Positions 10,942-23,130 of a stretch of DNA of 64,000 nt are shown here, piece after piece. How positions within the stretch are numbered: the first letter of the stretch is position 1; each line of letters begins with the position of its first letter. The position numbers and the translations under genes are program-made. This stretch comes from Candidatus Poribacteria bacterium (lineage in GTDB: Bacteria; Poribacteria; WGA-4E; WGA-3G): contig JAJDZB010000023.1 in the NCBI GenBank assembly GCA_022824835.1, forward strand, positions 14,461 to 78,460. Reading direction: 5' to 3'. The notes under the pieces are model-generated. The model was given only the letters and a program-made list of their open reading frames with translations. It made no database searches and was not told the DNA's origin.

Positions 10942-11967
10942 GTGTTTGTTCCAGTAAAAAGTAAGTCTGGCAATCAAGTAATGCCGACAAATCCTAACAA
11001 AGCAGGTGTGCTAATCAAAAAAGGATTAGCAACACCTTATTGGTCTAACGGTATCTTTTGCATTCGGCTCAATTACGAAACAGAAGAATACACACAGGAT
11101 ATAGCAGTAGGTGTTGATCCTGGTTCAAAGAAAGAAGGATTTACAGTAAAGTCTGCATCTCATACCTATCTGAATGTGCAAGCAGATGCCCATAACAAGG
11201 TTGGTGACAAGATTGAAAAGCGACGTGAACTTCGTAGAAGTAGACGTACCCGTAAATGCCCGAATCGTAAGAATAAGACTAACCGTCTTGCTAACAGAGA
11301 ACGCATCCCAGCAGGCACACGTGCAAGATGGGATTGGAAACTACGAATACTTGAATGGCTGTCAAACCTTTATCCTATCAGCCATGTATGTGTAGAAGAT
11401 ATTAAGGCAGGGACACATAAAGGTGCTAAAAAGTGGAATCAAAGTTTTAGTCCCCTTGAAGTTGGTAAGCAATGGTTCTATACTGGAATCAAAAAACGGT
11501 GGAAGTTGCTGACACTACAAGGATGGGAAACAAAAGAGATTAGAGATAGATTGGGTCTCAAGAAGTCCAATAAGAAGTTATCAGAAACGTTTGATACACA
11601 TTGTGTTGATAGTTGGTGCTTAGCACATCATACAGTTGGTGGCGATAGTATTCCTGATAACACAGATATATTCTGCGTTTCACCTATACCGATTAAGCGT
11701 AGATGTTTGCATAGAAAGCAAGAATCTAAGGGCAGAAGACGGACTAGATATGGTGGCACTATCTTAAAGGATGGATTAGTCAAAAACACATTGGTCAAAC
11801 ATATTAGATATGGACTGACTCGACTGTCAGGTGTTAATGCCAAAGGTTTATTTTCACTTTACGATATGTGCGGGCAACGATTAACGACCAGTGCCAAACG
11901 CACAGATTTTCAAGTGCTTACACGTATGAATTTTCAATATAGGAGCGGGCATTCCTCCCCGTGCTAA
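10942..11967 (+). CDS. isrB: IsrB, the HNH-less IscB-family RuvC-like nuclease (OMEGA effector)
   Basis: The N-terminal PLMP-like domain is VFVPVKSKSGNQVMPTNPNKAGVLIKKGLA. RuvC-I is IAVGVDPGSKKEGFTV. The Arg-rich bridge helix RRELRRSRRTRKCPNRK carries the RRXRR motif. RuvC-II is HVCVEDIKAG and RuvC-III is THCVDSWCLAHH. There is no CxxC...HH HNH insert. It is 341 aa with a GTG start. Confidence 0.75.
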   Translation: MFVPVKSKSGNQVMPTNPNKAGVLIKKGLATPYWSNGIFCIRLNYETEEYTQDIAVGVDPGSKKEGFTVKSASHTYLNVQADAHNKVGDKIEKRRELRRSRRTRKCPNRKNKTNRLANRERIPAGTRARWDWKLRILEWLSNLYPISHVCVEDIKAGTHKGAKKWNQSFSPLEVGKQWFYTGIKKRWKLLTLQGWETKEIRDRLGLKKSNKKLSETFDTHCVDSWCLAHHTVGGDSIPDNTDIFCVSPIPIKRRCLHRKQESKGRRRTRYGGTILKDGLVKNTLVKHIRYGLTRLSGVNAKGLFSLYDMCGQRLTTSAKRTDFQVLTRMNFQYRSGHSSPC

Positions 11968-14946: not shown

Positions 14947-14960
14947 TTGCGGTTCTTCTG

Positions 14961-15040
14961 GCACTCCAGCGGAGTGCTATGTCTATAGAAATAGGATAAG
15001 GTCTTTCTTGCACTCCAGCGGAGTGCTATGTCTATAGAAA
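14961..15040. repeat. Two tandem copies of the hairpin repeat GCACTCCAGCGGAGTGC-TATGTCTATAGAAAT
   Basis: Seen directly. The same unit recurs at 27651-27730 and, inverted, at 2086-2158. Confidence 0.8.
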
Positions 15041-15099
15041 TATGTGAAAACAGCAAAACGATAGGTAAATAACACAATTTGTGAGGAAAGAAAGAATAT

Positions 15100-15963
15100 A
15101 TGAAAATAGGATTACGTATACCCGGCACCGCACGTCAGATGCCATTTCCAGACTTCTGTAAATGGTGTGCGGACAACGGATTTGAAGCAATTGACATTGG
15201 TGAAGTAACCCCTGAGATCGTAAAATCAGCACGAGATGCAGGATTAGAGATCGGGTCAGCAGATTTACCCGGCACCCGCGAACTCCTCAGCGCAAAAAAA
15301 TCAACCCAGAAATCAGGTGCAGAAAAAGCAAAAGCAGCAATACAGGCAGCAGCTGATAACGATGTTCACATTATGTTCTGTGTTTTTGTGCCTGAAGATG
15401 CAAGTCTTGGGCGCGGTAAAAACTTTGATATATGGAAAGACACCGTTCCACCCATAGCAGAATTTGCAGCTTCAAAGGGCGTTACCATAGCAGTTGAAGG
15501 TTGGCCCGGTGGTGCACCAACGTATCCCGCCCTTGGCTGTACACCTGAAATGTGGCGTGCCATGTTTGCAGAATGTTCACCAGAAGGATTAGGACTTAAC
15601 TATGACCCTTCACATCTTGTCAGAATAGGGATTGACCCTATTCGTGCACTCTATGAATTTGCGTCTTCCGTGAAACATGTGCACGGAAAGGATACCGCTA
15701 TTGACGAGGAAGCTCTATACCTACACGGAAATTTAGGACCGAGTTTTCACAGTCCACGCGGTTTCGGTGAAGACTGGTGGCGTTACACAATCCCTGGTGA
15801 TGGTGTAGTCGACTGGTTAAGAGTCGTTCAGATTTTGGAAGATGAAGGTTTTGATGGCATCGTCAGCGTTGAGCTTGAGGATTACCGTTACTGGCGAACC
15901 TGGGAAGCAGAATCTGACGGACTAATAAGGTCCCATGAATTCTTGTCCTGTTTTGTGCGATAA
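15100..15963 (+). CDS. Sugar-phosphate isomerase/epimerase (xylose-isomerase-like TIM barrel)
   Basis: 287 aa with the typical AP-endonuclease-2/TIM-barrel pattern (HVHGKD...E...). Paralogues lie at 38554, 56612 and 57422. Confidence 0.65.
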   Translation: MKIGLRIPGTARQMPFPDFCKWCADNGFEAIDIGEVTPEIVKSARDAGLEIGSADLPGTRELLSAKKSTQKSGAEKAKAAIQAAADNDVHIMFCVFVPEDASLGRGKNFDIWKDTVPPIAEFAASKGVTIAVEGWPGGAPTYPALGCTPEMWRAMFAECSPEGLGLNYDPSHLVRIGIDPIRALYEFASSVKHVHGKDTAIDEEALYLHGNLGPSFHSPRGFGEDWWRYTIPGDGVVDWLRVVQILEDEGFDGIVSVELEDYRYWRTWEAESDGLIRSHEFLSCFVR

Positions 15964-15971
15964 ATTACTAA

Positions 15972-16196
15972 ATGAATAAACTAAAGATGACATATTTTGA
16001 TACAGAAGATATTTTATATCTTCTGTATTCTGAAGGGCCTCAAAGTGGTAGCTTGGAATTAACGCCTGATATCACTGCTGATTTAAATGAGAACGGTAAT
16101 CTCATAGGTATTGAAATACTTAATGCCAGCAGTTTTATTGAGGGTGTTATATTAGAAGGTAAATTAGCAAAAGAGTTAACACTTGCCGAGTCCTAA
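15972..16196 (+). CDS. DUF2283-family small protein
   Basis: 74 aa with MNKLKMTYFDTEDILYL...IGIEILNAS. It is ~75% identical at the DNA level to the second copy at 18036-18227. Confidence 0.6.
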   Translation: MNKLKMTYFDTEDILYLLYSEGPQSGSLELTPDITADLNENGNLIGIEILNASSFIEGVILEGKLAKELTLAES

Positions 16197-16240: not shown

Positions 16241-16337
16241 TAGGTTGAGCTTGAGGATTAATGTTGTTGGCGAACATGGGAAGCAGAATCTGATGGTTTG
16301 CTGCGTTCTCACGAATTTCTTTCCTGCTTTATTCGAT
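16241..16337 (+). pseudogene. Decayed duplicate of the 3' end of the isomerase gene at 15100-15963
   Basis: 16241-16337 matches 15871-15963 at ~85% identity. It translates as VELED*CCWRTWEAESDGLLRSHEFLSCFIR*, against VELEDYRYWRTWEAESDGLIRSHEFLSCFVR* in the intact gene. Confidence 0.7.
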
Positions 16338-16413
16338 AAAAACTCTTTACTTAATTTCTGATATACTGTGAGGGGAAAACTCCATAAAATATTAAAAGGA
16401 AAAGGAGACTTTA

Positions 16414-16965
16414 ATGTTTAGCAAAACTTTAGTAATGTTTGGGATATTGTTATTTTTAGTATCTTTGTTTACAGGATGTACTAGTTTGGTAAATAGCATA
16501 TCAGAAGAAGAGAAGTTTGCAGAAACTATGAATGCATGGAAAGGACATCATATTTCAGGTGTTATTCAAAGATTGGGGCCGCCTGATAATGTAGTTTCTG
16601 ATGAAGCGGGGGGTAAGATTTATGTGTGGATTGAACACAAACAAACGTCTGTTCCTCAATATAGTTATGAGTCTGTTCCTCAAAATAATCCAATTTATGT
16701 GCCTCCAGTCACTCTACCACAACGCACGACCACAAAAGGTGAAATGCGTTGGAATCCATATTTAGAAAAATGGGAATGGAAATCAGAATCCACTACGCAG
16801 TCAAAAAACACACCGGATCCTCTTGGAGCAATCCTGAAGGCTCAATCTACTACTCCTCAGAAACGATTAGTAACAAAATATGCAACAAGTACAAGGAGTT
16901 CTCATCTTATGTTTTTTGCTCGACATAATGGCACAATTTATCATTGGAATCTTATAAAAAAATAA
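16414..16965 (+). CDS. Hypothetical lipoprotein
   Basis: Signal peptide with a lipobox (LFTGC). GGAGA Shine-Dalgarno site. No motif I recognise. Confidence 0.5.
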   Translation: MFSKTLVMFGILLFLVSLFTGCTSLVNSISEEEKFAETMNAWKGHHISGVIQRLGPPDNVVSDEAGGKIYVWIEHKQTSVPQYSYESVPQNNPIYVPPVTLPQRTTTKGEMRWNPYLEKWEWKSESTTQSKNTPDPLGAILKAQSTTPQKRLVTKYATSTRSSHLMFFARHNGTIYHWNLIKK

Positions 16966-17101
16966 AATCTTGATTGAATTGGTAAGAGCGAATACTATAA
17001 GTGTTACCAAACGTATACATTTGGATGCATTTATAAATGAAAGCAATTTTCGGTTCCATTAAGTAAAACTGTCTGCTCCTAAGGGAATTCTTGGAGTAAT
17101 A

Positions 17102-18040
17102 ATGCCTATATTTAAATTAGAAGGTGAAAATACTAACTCAAAGCTTATCCTTGCCAAGGCAACAAACTTGGAATTTGAAAGCGATCTGGAGGATTGGCTT
17201 GAGAATAGTCCTTGGGCACTGGTTCAAGACGAACTTATTCTCTGGGTTGATAGACAACCAAAAGCTAAAGAAGAAGAGAGTACAATCTTCCCTGACCTGC
17301 TTGGTGTTGATGCTGAAGGAAATCTTGTCATTGTTGAATTCAAAAGAGGAAAAACTCCACGGAAGGTTGTAGCACAACTTCTTGAGTATGCAGCTTGGGC
17401 AAAAAAACTCTCTGAAGAAGATATTCAGGAAATTAGCGGGAAATACTTTGAGAAACGTGAGGAATTCAGAGGAAAACATTTTAACGAAGTATTTAAGAAA
17501 GTTTTTGAGATCCCTGATAATGATGATGTTCCACCGTTAAAACATAACCTACGTTTGTTTATCGTAGCTGAAGAAATTACAGACAGAATTGTGAGTGTTT
17601 GTCGATTTCTTCGAACTTCATATAGAATTGATATTAGTTGTATATCGGTTTCACTATTCCAAACTGATGAATTTGGAGAAAAGTTCGTCAGCATGGAAAC
17701 TAAAGTTGGAGATGAAAACCTATTTGCACCTGCGCCTATTGTCGCAGACGGTCCTAAGATCATAGAAGTAGTCCGTGAAGCAATAAAGGAGATAACGGGA
17801 GAGAAAACAAACGTTGAATTTGCACCAAAAGATGTAAAGAAAATATTATCAGAAAAATATCCTGGTTTCAAGTTAGCAGGTGTGAATTTTAACATAGGTA
17901 CGGACACTGTAAATCAGAATACGTATGATGTCATTCCTAAATCTGAACGGAAATTATGGCGAGTAGCTCAAGGAAAGTATCGTCTGCATGATCCAGAAAA
18001 GGACAAAGTGGAAGGTAATGGGATACCAACCGATGAATAA
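17102..18040 (+). CDS. PD-(D/E)xK nuclease-fold protein (NucS/DUF91-like motif)
   Basis: PDLLGVDAEGNLVIVEFKRGK gives D...D...ExK, followed by VVAQLLEYAAW. This is characteristic of restriction-endonuclease-like fold nucleases. Confidence 0.5.
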   Translation: MPIFKLEGENTNSKLILAKATNLEFESDLEDWLENSPWALVQDELILWVDRQPKAKEEESTIFPDLLGVDAEGNLVIVEFKRGKTPRKVVAQLLEYAAWAKKLSEEDIQEISGKYFEKREEFRGKHFNEVFKKVFEIPDNDDVPPLKHNLRLFIVAEEITDRIVSVCRFLRTSYRIDISCISVSLFQTDEFGEKFVSMETKVGDENLFAPAPIVADGPKIIEVVREAIKEITGEKTNVEFAPKDVKKILSEKYPGFKLAGVNFNIGTDTVNQNTYDVIPKSERKLWRVAQGKYRLHDPEKDKVEGNGIPTDE

Positions 18041-18227
18041 GCCAAAGATGACATATTTTGATAAAGAAGATATTCTACATCTCGTAATTTCTGATGAACT
18101 ACAAAGCGGTAGCATGGAGTTGAGTCATAATATCACTGCTGAATTGAATGATATCGGGCAACTCATCGGTATCAAAATACTTAACGCAAACACTTTCATT
18201 CAGAAGAAGCAAACACCTTTTCCATGA
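18036..18227 (+). CDS. DUF2283-family small protein, second copy
   Basis: MNKPKMTYFDKEDILHL...IGIKILNAN. The ATG overlaps the stop of the upstream nuclease gene. Confidence 0.55.
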   Translation, partial: NKPKMTYFDKEDILHLVISDELQSGSMELSHNITAELNDIGQLIGIKILNANTFIQKKQTPFP

Positions 18228-18300
18228 ACTTTACCAACTGATTTCTCAGAAATGTAAATCAATTACACAAGGATTGGTAATCCGTTAAAAGGAATATTCT

Positions 18301-19143
18301 ATGAATAATCTAAATCCATACAAAGATTTCATTGATCGCTTTAAGTTATTGCTCAGCAAGCATCGTCAACTGATAACTACCACGCTCAGTAATATTTTTA
18401 CGATGAGACTTATTGGAAATAAAACCCATGGTGATTTAGCAGAGATTGCAATTTCTGAATTTATTAACCAGTATATGTATGATTTTCGATCAGTTCACGT
18501 TGGTAAGGACCTGTATCGAGCGAAGTCAAAAGAGGAAGACATAAAAATCATCAATGAAATCACAAAAGATGAATTCCCTGTTAGTCTAAAAGCATACGGA
18601 CTCGGTCCTCTCCAACTCTCCACTGACAAGAATTTTCGCATGTTTCCTAGACTGCAGCAAGAAGGGACAGATATAAAGGAACTAGATACTATTCGTATTC
18701 TTTTTGAAGATACTGCTTTCACAGAATTCAGCTACATCAATGTGTTACCACTAATCTATAATGAAAAGAAAAAATGCTGTAATATACTTGTTTTTGACTG
18801 GGAACGTGCAGTTAATGAAACTTCGCGCATCACTTGGGTAGGGCCAGGAAAGAGAAGAAAACATCCAGTTTATAGGTTTTATAATAATAGTGGTAGTTAT
18901 ATCTGTGAAGTACGTTATGGTGATGCTGAAGCAAATGCATTACAACGAGGTTTGTGGACCCATACAAAGAATGCTGAGAAGTATTTTGACAGCATTACGA
19001 GTGGCTGGATTGACTATTCACATAATTTGCTACTTGTTAAGCTTTTCTCACATGCCCTTGTATCTTCAGAAGATGGTCACAAGTTAGCTCTTGAAAAAAT
19101 AAAGGAAGATATTATGGTTTTAAAACAACAATCGGGAATATAA
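18301..19143 (+). CDS. Putative type II restriction endonuclease, cognate to the adjacent methyltransferase
   Basis: 280 aa with no motif I recognise. The call rests on context: it ends 3 bp before a D12-class Dam-like methyltransferase, and its size matches DpnII/MboI-type restriction endonucleases (R genes). Confidence 0.35.
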   Translation: MNNLNPYKDFIDRFKLLLSKHRQLITTTLSNIFTMRLIGNKTHGDLAEIAISEFINQYMYDFRSVHVGKDLYRAKSKEEDIKIINEITKDEFPVSLKAYGLGPLQLSTDKNFRMFPRLQQEGTDIKELDTIRILFEDTAFTEFSYINVLPLIYNEKKKCCNILVFDWERAVNETSRITWVGPGKRRKHPVYRFYNNSGSYICEVRYGDAEANALQRGLWTHTKNAEKYFDSITSGWIDYSHNLLLVKLFSHALVSSEDGHKLALEKIKEDIMVLKQQSGI

Positions 19144-19145
19144 AC

Positions 19146-20297
19146 ATGATGCAAATGCAGACACTTTTTGATGATTGTGTAACGGAAATTCCTCTCACAC
19201 AAAGCATAAAATACACTGGTTCCAAACTAAAACTCATTCCACAAATACTTGAACTCACCAGAAAAGTTGATGCAAAGACAATATTAGATGGTTTCTCAGG
19301 TACAACCCGTGTCTCACAAGCATTTGCAAAACTTGGCTATAACGTGATATGTAACGACATCTCCGCGTGGTCAAACGTACTTGGCACTTGCTACCTTCTT
19401 AATACAAAATCGAGATCTGAATACCAACCTCTAATTGACCATCTAAACGCACTTCCTCCAATTGATGGATGGTTCACAAAACACTATGGCGGAGACACTA
19501 ACGGCGGTTCAGCAATCCAAACAGATGGACTGAAAAAACCGTGGCAAAGACATAATACCCGCAAATTAGATGCTGTCCGACAAGAAATTGAAAATCTGAA
19601 ACTTGATAGTGTTGAAAAAGCCGTAGCACTCACAAGCTTAATTCTGGCATTGGATCGCGTTGACAGTACACTCGGTCATTTTTCCGCTTACCTTAAAGAT
19701 TGGTCCCCGCGTTCCTACAAAGAGCTTGTACTTGAAGTGCCAATGGTATTTAGGTCAGAAGGTCATCATGAAATCTATCAATCCGACATTTTTGAACTCG
19801 TTCCACAAGTATCAGTAGACCTTGCCTATTTTGATCCACCCTACGGTTCAAACAACGAAAAGATGCCACCCTCACGTGTAAGATACGCGGCATACTACCA
19901 TATCTGGAAAAGTATTATCCTTTATGATAAACCGCAACTCTTCGGTAAAGCAAAACGTCGTAAGGATTCCTCCGATCAATCCTCCGCATCTGTCTTTGAG
20001 GAATTTCGTAGAAATGCAGATGGACGTTTCATCGCAGTTGAAGCAATCGAAAAGCTAATTAAGATGACACAAGCACGTTGGATTCTTCTGTCATACAGTT
20101 CCGGTGGACGTGCCACTGCTGAGGAACTAAACACAGTCATGCAATCAAACGGTAAACTCCTTGCTATTACTGAGATAAATTACAAGCGAAATGTTATGGG
20201 AAATATGAAATGGTCAAATGAATGGACACCTTCCACTACAAAACCAAATCAAGAATACCTTTTTCTACTTAAAAAGAAATGTAGCACATTCTGTTAG
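19146..20297 (+). CDS. D12-class N6-adenine DNA methyltransferase (Dam/DpnM-like) with a C-terminal extension
   Basis: N-terminal KYTGSK, the SAM-binding region LDGFSGTTRVSQ and the catalytic DPPY (AYFDPPYGSNN). The last codons, CSTFC*, are encoded by a copy of the dispersed GTAGCACATTCTGTTAGATTG repeat. Confidence 0.75.
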   Translation: MMQMQTLFDDCVTEIPLTQSIKYTGSKLKLIPQILELTRKVDAKTILDGFSGTTRVSQAFAKLGYNVICNDISAWSNVLGTCYLLNTKSRSEYQPLIDHLNALPPIDGWFTKHYGGDTNGGSAIQTDGLKKPWQRHNTRKLDAVRQEIENLKLDSVEKAVALTSLILALDRVDSTLGHFSAYLKDWSPRSYKELVLEVPMVFRSEGHHEIYQSDIFELVPQVSVDLAYFDPPYGSNNEKMPPSRVRYAAYYHIWKSIILYDKPQLFGKAKRRKDSSDQSSASVFEEFRRNADGRFIAVEAIEKLIKMTQARWILLSYSSGGRATAEELNTVMQSNGKLLAITEINYKRNVMGNMKWSNEWTPSTTKPNQEYLFLLKKKCSTFC

Positions 20298-20470
20298 ATT
20301 GCGCTTCTTTATTCCTCTTATCCTGAAAATCCTGGTCCAGATTGTGCTTCTTTAAATCTCTTATCCTGGTCAAAATCCTATAATCCTGAAAATCCTGGTC
20401 CAGATTGTGCTTCTTTGTAGCCTATCAAAGTCATATAATGATCCTGAAAACCCTTCCATGTCCTCCACGT
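20298..20470. repeat. ATCCTG-rich low-complexity repeat tract
   Basis: Units such as CTCTTATCCTGGTCAAAATCCTATAATCCTGAAAATCCTGGTCCAGATTGTGCTTCTTT repeat. The same family recurs at 22946-23130 and 32440-32530. Confidence 0.8.
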
Positions 20471-20626
20471 AATCTGAGATTCAGACAAATAGAGTGACAA
20501 AATATTTACACATACATATTTCGAAAAAAGTTGACAGATGCCAAAAATGACTGTAGAATAGAGTACAATTTAATACAATTCGCTTACAAGCAAAAACGTT
20601 TGCTGCAGAAAGAGGACAATTAACCG

Positions 20627-21769
20627 ATGAATAATAGGTTGTTTCCAATTCTCATAGTACTATTTACGGTATTCACTTTTACATCCAACAGTATTACCCA
20701 AGACCTACAGGATGATCCACAACAAGATGATTCCTATGATGGTGTGAAAGTCCACCCAGAGAAAATCCTTCCCAAGGATGTCCTCGTCTATGATATAGCG
20801 TTTTCCCCTGATGGCAATCATCTTGCAGTGGTGGGAGACTTCGGTATTCTGCTCTACGATACTCGGATAGTTGATAAACCTATCAAAGTAGCAGGGAATA
20901 TAGGCTCAGTGATTAGGATAGCGTTTACTCCCGATGGAAAGGTAATAGCATGTGTTGATTTCCATGGCAGAATTCGTCTTTTGGACGCCAACACGGAAGA
21001 ACTTTTACGAACAATCAATGCACAAATCCGCAAAGAGGATAAGAAACCATTGATAATCGGTGTTGCATGTAGTCCTGACAGTAACACGATTATAAGTAGG
21101 CAGAATGGACTTAACTCTTTTGGACTAGTGGACAATACCATCCGTATGTGGGACATAGATACCGGTAAACTTTTGCGCACATTATCTGGACATTCGCAAC
21201 ATGTCAACGACATGGCGTTTAGTCCGGATAATAAAATAATCGCTACAGGAAGTTATGACCAAACCGTCCGTCTGTGGGATGCTGATACAGGCAAACTTCT
21301 ACACATACTATCCGAGCATACGGATCGAGTCAAAAGCGTGGCGTTTAGTCCGGATGGTAGGGTAATTGTAAGTGGAAGTGGAAGTTTTGACAGAACTCTC
21401 CGTCTGTGGGATGTGAACACGGGATATCTTCTTCATTCACTGACAACTGATAGATCATCGTTCACCTATAGTGTAGCGTATAGTCCGGATGGCAGGACTA
21501 TCGCAAGTTATGACGGATTTGAAATTGTCCTATGGGATGTGAAAACAGGACAGATACTACAGAAATTCAGAGAACGGTATAATGTTACGAGTGGCTGGAA
21601 GATTGTATTCAGTCCAGATGGCAAGACTATCGCATCTTGGGGATACAATGAAGTCAATCTATGGAATGTGAATCCAGGCAGACACCTAAGAACACTCATT
21701 TCAGGCAAACATTACGAACCTTCTGATGTGATACGTTCACTAAACGTAATTGAATCAAAAAGTAATTGA
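20627..21769 (+). CDS. Secreted WD40-repeat beta-propeller protein
   Basis: Signal peptide, then about seven WD40 units (AFSPDG...WD). Confidence 0.75.
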   Translation: MNNRLFPILIVLFTVFTFTSNSITQDLQDDPQQDDSYDGVKVHPEKILPKDVLVYDIAFSPDGNHLAVVGDFGILLYDTRIVDKPIKVAGNIGSVIRIAFTPDGKVIACVDFHGRIRLLDANTEELLRTINAQIRKEDKKPLIIGVACSPDSNTIISRQNGLNSFGLVDNTIRMWDIDTGKLLRTLSGHSQHVNDMAFSPDNKIIATGSYDQTVRLWDADTGKLLHILSEHTDRVKSVAFSPDGRVIVSGSGSFDRTLRLWDVNTGYLLHSLTTDRSSFTYSVAYSPDGRTIASYDGFEIVLWDVKTGQILQKFRERYNVTSGWKIVFSPDGKTIASWGYNEVNLWNVNPGRHLRTLISGKHYEPSDVIRSLNVIESKSN

Positions 21770-21802
21770 AGAGACTCTTAATCCAAAATAAAAGGAAAAA
21801 CC

Positions 21803-22945
21803 GTGAAATTTGTCAACACCTTTCTGTTCACTACACTATTTCTTATTACAGTCGTGCAATTCGGTTGTGTATCACTTAATCTAACACACCGTGCAGAGAG
21901 ATTAGTTAATGAAAAGGATTACAGTGGTGCCATAGAAGTCTACCAAAGCATAGTTGAGAGTCACCCCGGCACTGTTAATGCGCGCAAAGCACAACTCGCT
22001 ATCGGTAAACTCTACACTGAGCACCTGAATCAACCTGAAAAAGGGATTGATGCTTATGAAGCGATTATTGCTGAAGCACCCACCAGTGACGAATCTGCGG
22101 AGGCACGGTATCGTATCGGAACCCACACCTATCACAACGAAAAATACGACACAGCACAGCTCTATTTTGAAATAATCGTTAACCAATTTTCACATCTAAA
22201 ATTGAGCCACAACGCACAACTCCTGTTAGCGAAAAGTTATGAAGCAGGAGAAAAATTTGAACAAGCTGTAGAAACCTATGAGAACCTTATGACCCGTTAC
22301 CCGTATAGCAAACGCACACCACAAATACTGACTAATAAAGCACGTATACAACGAGAACACCTTAACGATAATGAAGAAGCGATACGAACATTGGAATTAT
22401 TAGTCAGGAAATACAATAAAAATGAGGATGCTGAATCGTACGTGAATGAAGCCAAGAAAACATTGATTGAATTCAACCGCTCTCCCTTTGGGTTTGGTCC
22501 ATATCCTGAAATTCCTTCTGATTTTCCTTTTCGCGAAGGTATTCTGGGGTGGGATAGTCCCACCCCAGAACATGAATTGGCATATAGAGTTCATATTAAG
22601 TTGTGGGAACAGGGTACACAGTTGACAAGTGTTTCGATTAGTGGTAATGGTCTCATTTATCCCTATATGCCTGGGGTAATTTATGTAGAATGGACTACCC
22701 TTCCAGACGATGACCCAGAATTCCCAGGTCAAAGGTATGCCTCACATATATCGGGTCACCCCGAAACAGCTAAAAAGTGGCAATCTTTATACCTTGTCAA
22801 CCGAAGTTATGAACGCACAGGCATAACACCTAATGAAATTGAGGAATCCGGTATAAAGGTTCATGTTTACCCAGATGGCACAAAAGTCTATCCGTTCCCA
22901 GATGCAGGAATTGACCCTTATGAATTCCTCGGTTTAACAAAGTAA
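21803..22945 (+). CDS. Secreted TPR-repeat protein
   Basis: Signal peptide. An N-terminal TPR-like helical region is followed by a C-terminal domain of unknown function. Confidence 0.5.
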   Translation: MKFVNTFLFTTLFLITVVQFGCVSLNLTHRAERLVNEKDYSGAIEVYQSIVESHPGTVNARKAQLAIGKLYTEHLNQPEKGIDAYEAIIAEAPTSDESAEARYRIGTHTYHNEKYDTAQLYFEIIVNQFSHLKLSHNAQLLLAKSYEAGEKFEQAVETYENLMTRYPYSKRTPQILTNKARIQREHLNDNEEAIRTLELLVRKYNKNEDAESYVNEAKKTLIEFNRSPFGFGPYPEIPSDFPFREGILGWDSPTPEHELAYRVHIKLWEQGTQLTSVSISGNGLIYPYMPGVIYVEWTTLPDDDPEFPGQRYASHISGHPETAKKWQSLYLVNRSYERTGITPNEIEESGIKVHVYPDGTKVYPFPDAGIDPYEFLGLTK

Positions 22946-23130
22946 AAAGATTGTGCTTCATTATACCTCTTATCCTGGTCAAAATCCTATAATCTTGTAA
23001 ATCCTGGTTCAGATTGTGCTTCTTTATCCCTCTTATCCTAGTATAATCCTGTAATCCTGAAAATCCTGGTCCCTCTTATCCTGGTCAAAATCCTATAATC
23101 CTGAAAATCCTGATTCAGATACAGTTGTTG
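22946..23130. repeat. ATCCTG-rich low-complexity repeat tract, second locus
   Basis: GATTGTGCTTC...CTCTTATCCTGGTCAAAATCCTATAATCCTG units. Confidence 0.8.

Follow-up and report, generated by a model that had tools for sequence, protein, structure and literature searches.

Within a 64,000-nt stretch of a Candidatus Poribacteria chromosome (contig JAJDZB010000023.1, positions 14,461 to 78,460; hereafter, the window), we examined an islet of four genes that follows a radical-SAM gene and a TIM-barrel gene, at a site that varies between strains. We consider it likely that the locus is a small defence site, fairly typical of its kind, made up of two independent and separable modules of known types. 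The first, genes iii and iv, is probably a genuine, autonomous and orthodox type II restriction-modification (R-M) cassette, as judged from profile matches and gene linkage; the second is a putative stand-alone nuclease (gene i), optionally accompanied by a small DUF2283 protein (gene ii). An earlier note, made from the sequence alone, had described four co-directional genes here, and all four open reading frames (ORFs) were found where it had placed them, on the + strand:

17102..18040, +: gene i (N), 312 aa; NucS-like PD-(D/E)xK core at about residues 60-200, a linker, and a C-terminal winged-helix DUF7669 domain at about residues 218-300
18033..18227, +: gene ii (D), DUF2283 protein of 64 aa (ATG at 18033) or, with an alternative start at 18048, 59 aa
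18301..19143, +: gene iii (R), putative 280-aa type II restriction endonuclease (REase), assigned from a PADLOC profile and linkage
19146..20297, +: gene iv (M), 383-aa D12-class (alpha-type motif order) N6-adenine DNA methyltransferase, the predicted cognate of gene iii

This arrangement leaves current concepts unchanged and extends known patterns to a symbiont phylum, in which a candidate defence nuclease that is apparently swapped as whole alleles sits beside an R-M pair.

The probable restriction-modification pair and its distribution

The proposal of the earlier note that genes iii and iv form a type II R-M pair was borne out by both profile searches and gene linkage. Gene iii matches the PADLOC REase_II profile PDLC03568 (E=1.3e-131) over positions 5-279 of 281, and gene iv matches the MTase_II profile PDLC03342 over its full length (E=3.5e-158). 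Gene iv also matches Pfam MethyltransfD12 (E=2.6e-26), with FSGTT at residue 50 and DPPY at residue 230, as expected of the D12 methyltransferase that had been proposed, and its start lies 2 nt past the stop of gene iii. For the linkage, metagenome contigs were scanned with an alignment of the REase, giving 80 loci from other environments: a D12 methyltransferase follows the REase in 72 of the 72 loci with room for it on the contig, while gene i and DUF2283 are found in 0 of these 80. REase-methyltransferase linkage is likewise seen in four of the loci collected from relatives and other genomes (numbered here with the prefix L), namely L085, L086, L088 and L089. The pair is carried on a Phycisphaerae contig, and in the 4.4-Mb genome of L088 (5001-6982) the cassette lies between the genes for the small and large subunits of carbamoyl-phosphate synthase, which together argue for a mobile two-gene unit. 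In the Poribacterial locus L089, the R-M pair occupies the same radical-SAM/TIM-barrel locus as in the window, with neither gene i nor DUF2283.

The REase family is large, with 3899 homologues, and unusually conserved: the best 120 of the 3899 are at least 73% identical, and carry labels as different as Phycisphaerae, Spiribacter and Poribacteria. Once one member had been characterised, thousands of genes would gain a specificity and a fold. In the window, the REase is full length, and all residues invariant in the family are retained. A search of 72,556 plasmids returned no match to the REase and, for the methyltransferase, matches of less than 34% identity that are named only “DNA adenine methylase”; a PHROGs search of the methyltransferase gave generic methyltransferase matches only.

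Family membership, obligate linkage and intact conserved residues are thus the observed properties of this first module, and from them we infer enzyme activities and the existence of a recognition site. The gene iv methyltransferase would modify a short recognition sequence of the host DNA with N6-methyladenine (m6A), and the gene iii endonuclease would cut that sequence when unmethylated, as in incoming phage or other foreign DNA. Among orthodox type II R-M systems, EcoRV and DpnII also have a D12-class (alpha-type) m6A methyltransferase. The pair described here is like them in its adjacent, co-directional and separate endonuclease and methyltransferase genes, in the position of motif I before DPPY, and in forming an obligate, mobile unit; it is unlike these examples in that its REase family comes without a Pfam model, a solved structure or a name in the sources.

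Regarding the recognition site, the earlier note had considered a GATC-family class, which does not hold: gene iv scores 12.8 bits against TIGR00571, where the cut-off is 114.85, and the REase has no DpnII-type Pfam match. The pair is therefore, unlike DpnII, not of the Dam/GATC family. The observed/expected ratio of GATC differs little between loci with the methyltransferase (0.58-0.62) and those lacking it (0.66). CTAG stands out far more, with 7 sites in the 64-kb window versus 149±11 expected (positions 11744, 16481, 18647, 18682, 21125, 23038 and 45255); the variable region at 16.3-23.1 kb holds five of the seven, two of these inside the REase gene. The observed/expected ratio of CTAG is 0.03 in Poribacteria that have only the methyltransferase versus 0.61 in deep lineages without it, a contrast that follows phylogeny and hence offers few independent comparisons, and in R-M hosts from other environments the ratio is 0.28, which we regard as no lower than the 0.36 of a small control set. 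We consider CTAG a weak candidate, and doubt that it is the recognition site. CATATG is absent from the window (0 sites versus about 17 expected), but only Poribacteria show this depletion, which is probably due to another system. GGCC is also low in the window, and the depletion of CTAG, CATATG and GGCC together suggests several long-resident restriction pressures.

To place both modules in the phylum, 80 species-representative loci were fetched with gene i as the query, about 70 of them labelled Poribacteria and six labelled as other phyla, and the proteins of the window were mapped onto them; presence or absence of the REase in relatives was judged at the locus only. Read downstream from gene i, the gene orders were distributed as follows:

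gene i alone: 32 of 80 loci
gene i, methyltransferase: 25 of 80 loci
gene i, DUF2283, methyltransferase: 14 of 80 loci
gene i, DUF2283: 5 of 80 loci
gene i, DUF2283, REase, methyltransferase: 4 of 80 loci

The methyltransferase thus lies downstream of gene i in 43 of the 80 loci, and 39 of these 43 are without the REase. Genomes that do bear the REase include L008, L017, L084 and L086, and many of the related genomes are chromosome-level metagenome assemblies. Its Poribacterial orthologues are 74-92% identical (about 78%) and form a single clade, outside of which fall two sequences from other taxa that are 66-67% identical to that of the window; the REase-linked methyltransferases are scattered through the Poribacterial clade. 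The identities of REase and methyltransferase give one common two-group split, with the window and L089 set against the rest, and in L016 (8235-9969) the REase orthologue is split into codons 1-24 and 24-276 by an insertion of about 900 bp. Apart from this split gene, no REase remnants were found in the REase-less loci. Taken together, one methyltransferase clade with the REase scattered through it, a two-group split shared by both genes, and an interrupted gene in L016 fit many losses of the REase from an old R-M system. The Poribacterial methyltransferase would then be an old, vertically inherited resident, usually without its endonuclease, and the REase a sporadic companion that appears intact in the window. 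Solitary methyltransferases derived from R-M systems include Dam and CcrM. Most Poribacteria resemble this class, keeping gene iv as a clade of its own with no adjacent REase; the window differs from it in that the REase is still present. Read in this way, the phylum offers a clean natural example of R-M decay towards a conserved solitary methyltransferase.

The closest relative, L044, captures this variation at short range. Its flanks match the window at about 95% identity in DNA, and at the protein level its radical-SAM and TIM-barrel products are at 99%. L044 keeps the methyltransferase (92%) and a 55-nt remnant of the 5' end of the DUF2283 gene designated DUF2283b (92.7%), and has no REase at the locus, which, given such near-identical flanks, means that even very closely related genomes are polymorphic for the REase. 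Two segments vary relative to L044, at approximately 16341-19196 and 20334-23071, with the methyltransferase gene as the conserved piece between them. The point of divergence falls within the first ~17 codons of the methyltransferase gene and is consistent with a recombination breakpoint.

The NucS-like nuclease and the DUF2283 genes

The earlier note had seen a restriction-endonuclease fold in gene i, and this reading held up. The motif PDLLGVD...VEFKRGK places the putative catalytic residues D65, E79 and K81, and these residues, together with Q92 and Y96, are invariant in 31 homologues of gene i. The best PDB sequence match is 2vld (NucS/EndoMS; E=0.019), with residues 64-108 aligning to residues 159-203 of 2vld. 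The AF2 model (pLDDT 78) likewise finds NucS/EndoMS as its top Foldseek match, with a probability of 0.99-1.0 and a low global TM-score of 0.25-0.34; the next matches are N.BspD6I, SduA, HamA and FokI. Gene i therefore shares with NucS/EndoMS the PD-(D/E)xK core and the D...ExK...Q...Y residues, but differs from it in its low global TM-score, its different flanking domains and its scores below the family cut-offs (18.2 bits against a cut-off of 24 for Pfam NucS_C, and 28.2 bits against 216 for NF003270). Membership in Shedu was considered and rejected: SduA_C scores 14.4 bits against a cut-off of 27 (E=0.042), and SduA (8ps4) is only a weak Foldseek match.

The C-terminal half of gene i is of a different nature. 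Residues 222-295 match Pfam DUF7669 (E=8.3e-9), and the Foldseek matches of this domain are winged-helix proteins (forkhead, Fur, Rok and the MCM C-terminal domain). R.DpnI reportedly has a comparable architecture, a PD-(D/E)xK domain followed by a C-terminal winged helix, and the two-domain order predicted from the model of gene i is like it. DpnI is not among the top 50 Foldseek matches to that model, and any dependence of gene i on methylation is pure speculation. As a side observation, three homologues of about 420 aa, P0029, P0102 and P0111, end in a tandem pair of DUF7669 winged-helix domains.

The earlier note had further proposed gene i and DUF2283 as a second defence or toxin-antitoxin (TA) module. 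Part of this stands, since gene i is close to a candidate defence family: five PADLOC PDC-S11 profiles match its N-terminal nuclease half, the best with E=5.9e-34. The match extends over positions 13-179 of the 358 in the profile and residues 14-197 of the 312 in gene i, short of full length, and where the PDC-S11 profile continues, gene i has the DUF7669 winged helix. PDC-S11 is itself a candidate without a demonstrated mechanism; in the literature it is found in surveys only, with a correlative mention in 10.1101/2025.11.08.687337, and our literature search found no paper that mentions DUF7669. Outside Poribacteria, three of five gene i homologues examined have defence-type neighbours. The homologue of Methylomonas lenta adjoins a Dcm methyltransferase, a HEPN_MAE_28990 protein and a GmrSD_N protein; that of an Alkalihalobacillus metagenome-assembled genome (MAG) adjoins a 952-aa AAA_5 ATPase, read as McrB-like; and that of a Desulfobacteraceae MAG adjoins a second NucS_C protein. 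Defence-type neighbours were not found beside the other two (L070 and L071).

Comparison with L044 shows gene i to be far more divergent than its surroundings. Identity between the two gene i proteins is 51% over the whole length, with 63% for the nuclease half and 41% for the winged-helix half, versus 99% for the flanking proteins and 92% for the methyltransferase, and identities to more distant species reach 64%, above that to this close relative. The divergence of gene i appears decoupled from that of its neighbours, as in the whole-allele replacement typical of defence genes, and such swapping argues both against a housekeeping role and against co-evolution with the methyltransferase. Two loci show a more complex arrangement: in L032 (7001-11215) and L003 (6001-11465), two copies or fragments of gene i are split by a DUF2283 gene and a lipoprotein homologue in a cassette-array-like order, and the L003 region also holds an IS630-type helix-turn-helix (HTH) gene and a lone DUF7669 fragment.

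Gene ii was identified as DUF2283 in the earlier note, in agreement with Pfam (E=1.7e-8). The reported overlap of its start with the nuclease stop is also present: the ATG at 18033 lies within ATGAATAA, a string that also holds the gene i stop codon (18038-18040). A public gene call prefers the ATG at 18048 for gene ii, for a protein of 59 aa. In 23 of the 80 species loci, the gene immediately following gene i encodes a DUF2283 protein, with a 4-nt overlap in L003 and L004, and 57 of the 80 keep gene i without one downstream. The pairing with a nuclease described in the earlier note is therefore present as an adjacency but optional as a partnership, and DUF2283 is best described, from its distribution, as a putative optional accessory of gene i rather than an obligate partner. 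DUF2283 is found in six of six loci with gene i and the REase versus 14 of 39 with the methyltransferase and no REase (Fisher p=0.005, uncorrected for phylogeny), an association that may reflect joint deletion, as seen in L044.

A second DUF2283 gene, overlooked in the earlier note, lies at 15972-16196, just 3' of the TIM-barrel gene (Da, or DUF2283a; Pfam E=1.4e-15). It is a paralogue of gene ii, with 77% DNA identity to 18033-18203 (repeat family D1). Both small ORFs match Pfam DUF2283, as do YuzE, described as a predicted antitoxin (PMC12521503), and a domain of the transcriptional activator FseA (PMC4755241); the two papers disagree on the role of the domain. Putative DUF4258-DUF2283 TA pairs provide no parallel, as Pfam found no DUF4258 among the eight genes scanned at the locus, and the idea of a DUF4258-type TA partnership was dropped. 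In the second module as we picture it, gene i would act as a stand-alone nuclease whose winged helix probably selects the DNA target, and DUF2283 would be an optional accessory, possibly a regulator or an antitoxin-like partner.

Weighing the alternatives

Several observations weigh against reading the locus as two defence modules. Wherever the sources name an REase family member, the name is “hypothetical protein”, and an exact-sequence look-up gave no names. Gene iii has no Pfam match, in keeping with the earlier impression that it carries no recognisable motif, and no PDB sequence or profile match beyond chance. Of the nuclease folds that the earlier note looked for in genes i and iii, the one in gene i was recovered as NucS-like, and the Pfam and PDB searches gave nothing of the sort for gene iii. 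The AF2 model of the REase, built on a 22-sequence alignment, has a pLDDT of 55.7 and Foldseek matches that are meaningless, and when profiles of the REase and gene i families were compared, no similarity emerged. These searches gave no nuclease fold or catalytic motif for the putative REase, which is therefore recognised by its PADLOC profile and its gene linkage. The methyltransferase is without an REase in most relatives, and may be a housekeeping enzyme there. On the side of the nuclease, the match of gene i to PDC-S11, itself a candidate system, is limited to the N-terminal 47% of the profile, and the syntenic position of gene i in about 70 Poribacteria species looks more like that of a core gene than that of a mobile defence gene.

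The concern over the methyltransferase leads to an explanation in which the methyltransferase is in effect a phylum-level orphan housekeeping m6A enzyme, comparable to Dam or CcrM, and the REase a recently re-imported or decaying passenger with little restriction activity. The REase-less state of 39 of the 43 methyltransferase-bearing loci speaks for it, as do the vertical clade that the methyltransferase forms and its conservation at about 78% identity where the REase is missing. A different history for the REase gene is also suggested by its two of the seven CTAG sites and its lower GC content than the methyltransferase gene, and the divergence from L044 in the first ~17 methyltransferase codons resembles a breakpoint. 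However, the REase of the window is full length with all family-invariant residues kept, it shares the two-group identity split with the methyltransferase, and the REase genes of five other Poribacteria are free of CTAG, which suggests long residence. The earlier note had named an orphan Dam as the finding that would tell against an R-M pair; the methyltransferase does prove mostly orphan in the phylum, but it has an intact REase beside it in the window and is not Dam. On balance, we think a passenger REase rather unlikely and favour a functional R-M cassette. In a second alternative, the functional unit would be gene i, the optional DUF2283 and the methyltransferase, with gene i as an alternative restriction nuclease or a methyl-directed one. 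The methyltransferase does follow gene i on the same strand in 43 of the 80 loci, often with a gap of only ~46-76 nt where DUF2283 and the REase are missing, and L004 shows operon-like packing of all three genes, with a 4-nt overlap followed by a 4-nt spacer. Yet gene i occurs without a nearby methyltransferase in 37 of 80 loci, including all six labelled as other phyla; its alleles are swapped independently of the methyltransferase; outside Poribacteria the methyltransferase is invariably paired with the 280-aa REase, with no case of gene i as its partner; and L089 has the R-M pair without gene i. We consider such a unit distinctly improbable. The same judgement, that it is very unlikely, applies to a phylum-wide operon of gene i, optional DUF2283 and methyltransferase in which an orphan m6A methyltransferase and a nuclease with a fast-changing winged helix cooperate, the REase being an occasional add-on; were it true, gene i might read the methylation mark in a MutH- or DpnI-like manner, to distinguish foreign DNA from that of the cell, or newly made strands from older ones.

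Two further explanations concern the nuclease module. Gene i might be a housekeeping DNA-repair nuclease like NucS/EndoMS and have no part in defence, as its best sequence and structure matches and its synteny in ~70 Poribacteria species would suggest. Its NucS family scores are far below the cut-offs, however; to our knowledge, a C-terminal winged-helix domain is not part of NucS; the protein is 49% divergent between relatives whose flanking proteins are 99% identical; and some homologues in other phyla are found in defence-type contexts. A repair role is thus highly improbable. Alternatively, gene i and DUF2283 could be a TA-like pair of a nuclease toxin and a small protein that neutralises it. 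The DUF2283 start overlaps the gene i stop here and in L003 and L004, the two genes are neighbours in 23 of 80 species, and YuzE, a DUF2283 protein, is a predicted antitoxin (PMC12521503). The 57 of 80 species with gene i and no downstream DUF2283 indicate, on the other hand, that gene i does not depend on it; moreover, the second DUF2283 copy follows the unrelated TIM-barrel gene, a DUF4258 toxin is missing among the genes scanned at the locus, and the same domain is part of the activator FseA (PMC4755241). We regard a TA-like pair as quite unlikely, and prefer a stand-alone nuclease with an optional accessory.

Surroundings and repeats of the islet

The islet is accompanied by the following further features:

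15972..16196, +: second DUF2283 gene (DUF2283a)
16244..16340, +: direct repeat D3: 97 nt from the 3' end of the TIM-barrel gene, in a displaced copy with 78% identity to the original at 15868-15964
16414..16965, +: predicted lipoprotein gene, 183 aa; lipobox FTGC, Cys22
20296..20416, +: intergenic repeat tract immediately 3' of the methyltransferase gene; units of ~43 and ~63 nt containing ATCCTG (families D6, D8, D10 and D12)

The earlier note had placed the islet between a lipoprotein gene and the ATCCTG repeats, and regarded the repeats as its boundary. Both features are present at these positions, but the repeats do not delimit the islet. The ATCCTG units of 20296-20416 recur in a second tract at 22948-23115, which the earlier note had overlooked, and the 2.6-kb block between the two tracts, comprising a WD40-repeat gene and a 380-aa ORF called TPR-like, is absent from L044; the repeats therefore flank a neighbouring WD40/TPR insertion. 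An intergenic repeat shared by both tracts, e.g. AATCCTGGTCCAGATTGTGCTTC, is present in 3 copies versus 0 expected.

The lipoprotein gene has no Pfam match, and homologues 34-38% identical to it are found at the equivalent locus in L003, L014 and L032; the segment that contains it (16341-17100) has no counterpart in L044. The GC content of the methyltransferase gene is 40.5%, similar to the 41.3% of the window and in keeping with a resident gene, and that of the REase, gene i, DUF2283 and lipoprotein genes is 35-38%. A scan for promoters and terminators gave no signal above chance.

Two copies of the final 97 nt of the TIM-barrel gene (15868-15964 and 16244-16340) bracket DUF2283a. The distal copy still translates to the C-terminus of the TIM-barrel protein, ...WEAESDGLLRSHEFLSCFIR*, and the arrangement is common to L044. 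The duplication looks like an insertion scar at the 3' end of the TIM-barrel gene, with no integrase nearby. Between the radical-SAM and TIM-barrel genes, at 14951-15042, a 43-nt unit with an internal inverted repeat is found in tandem (93% identity, 49-nt spacing).

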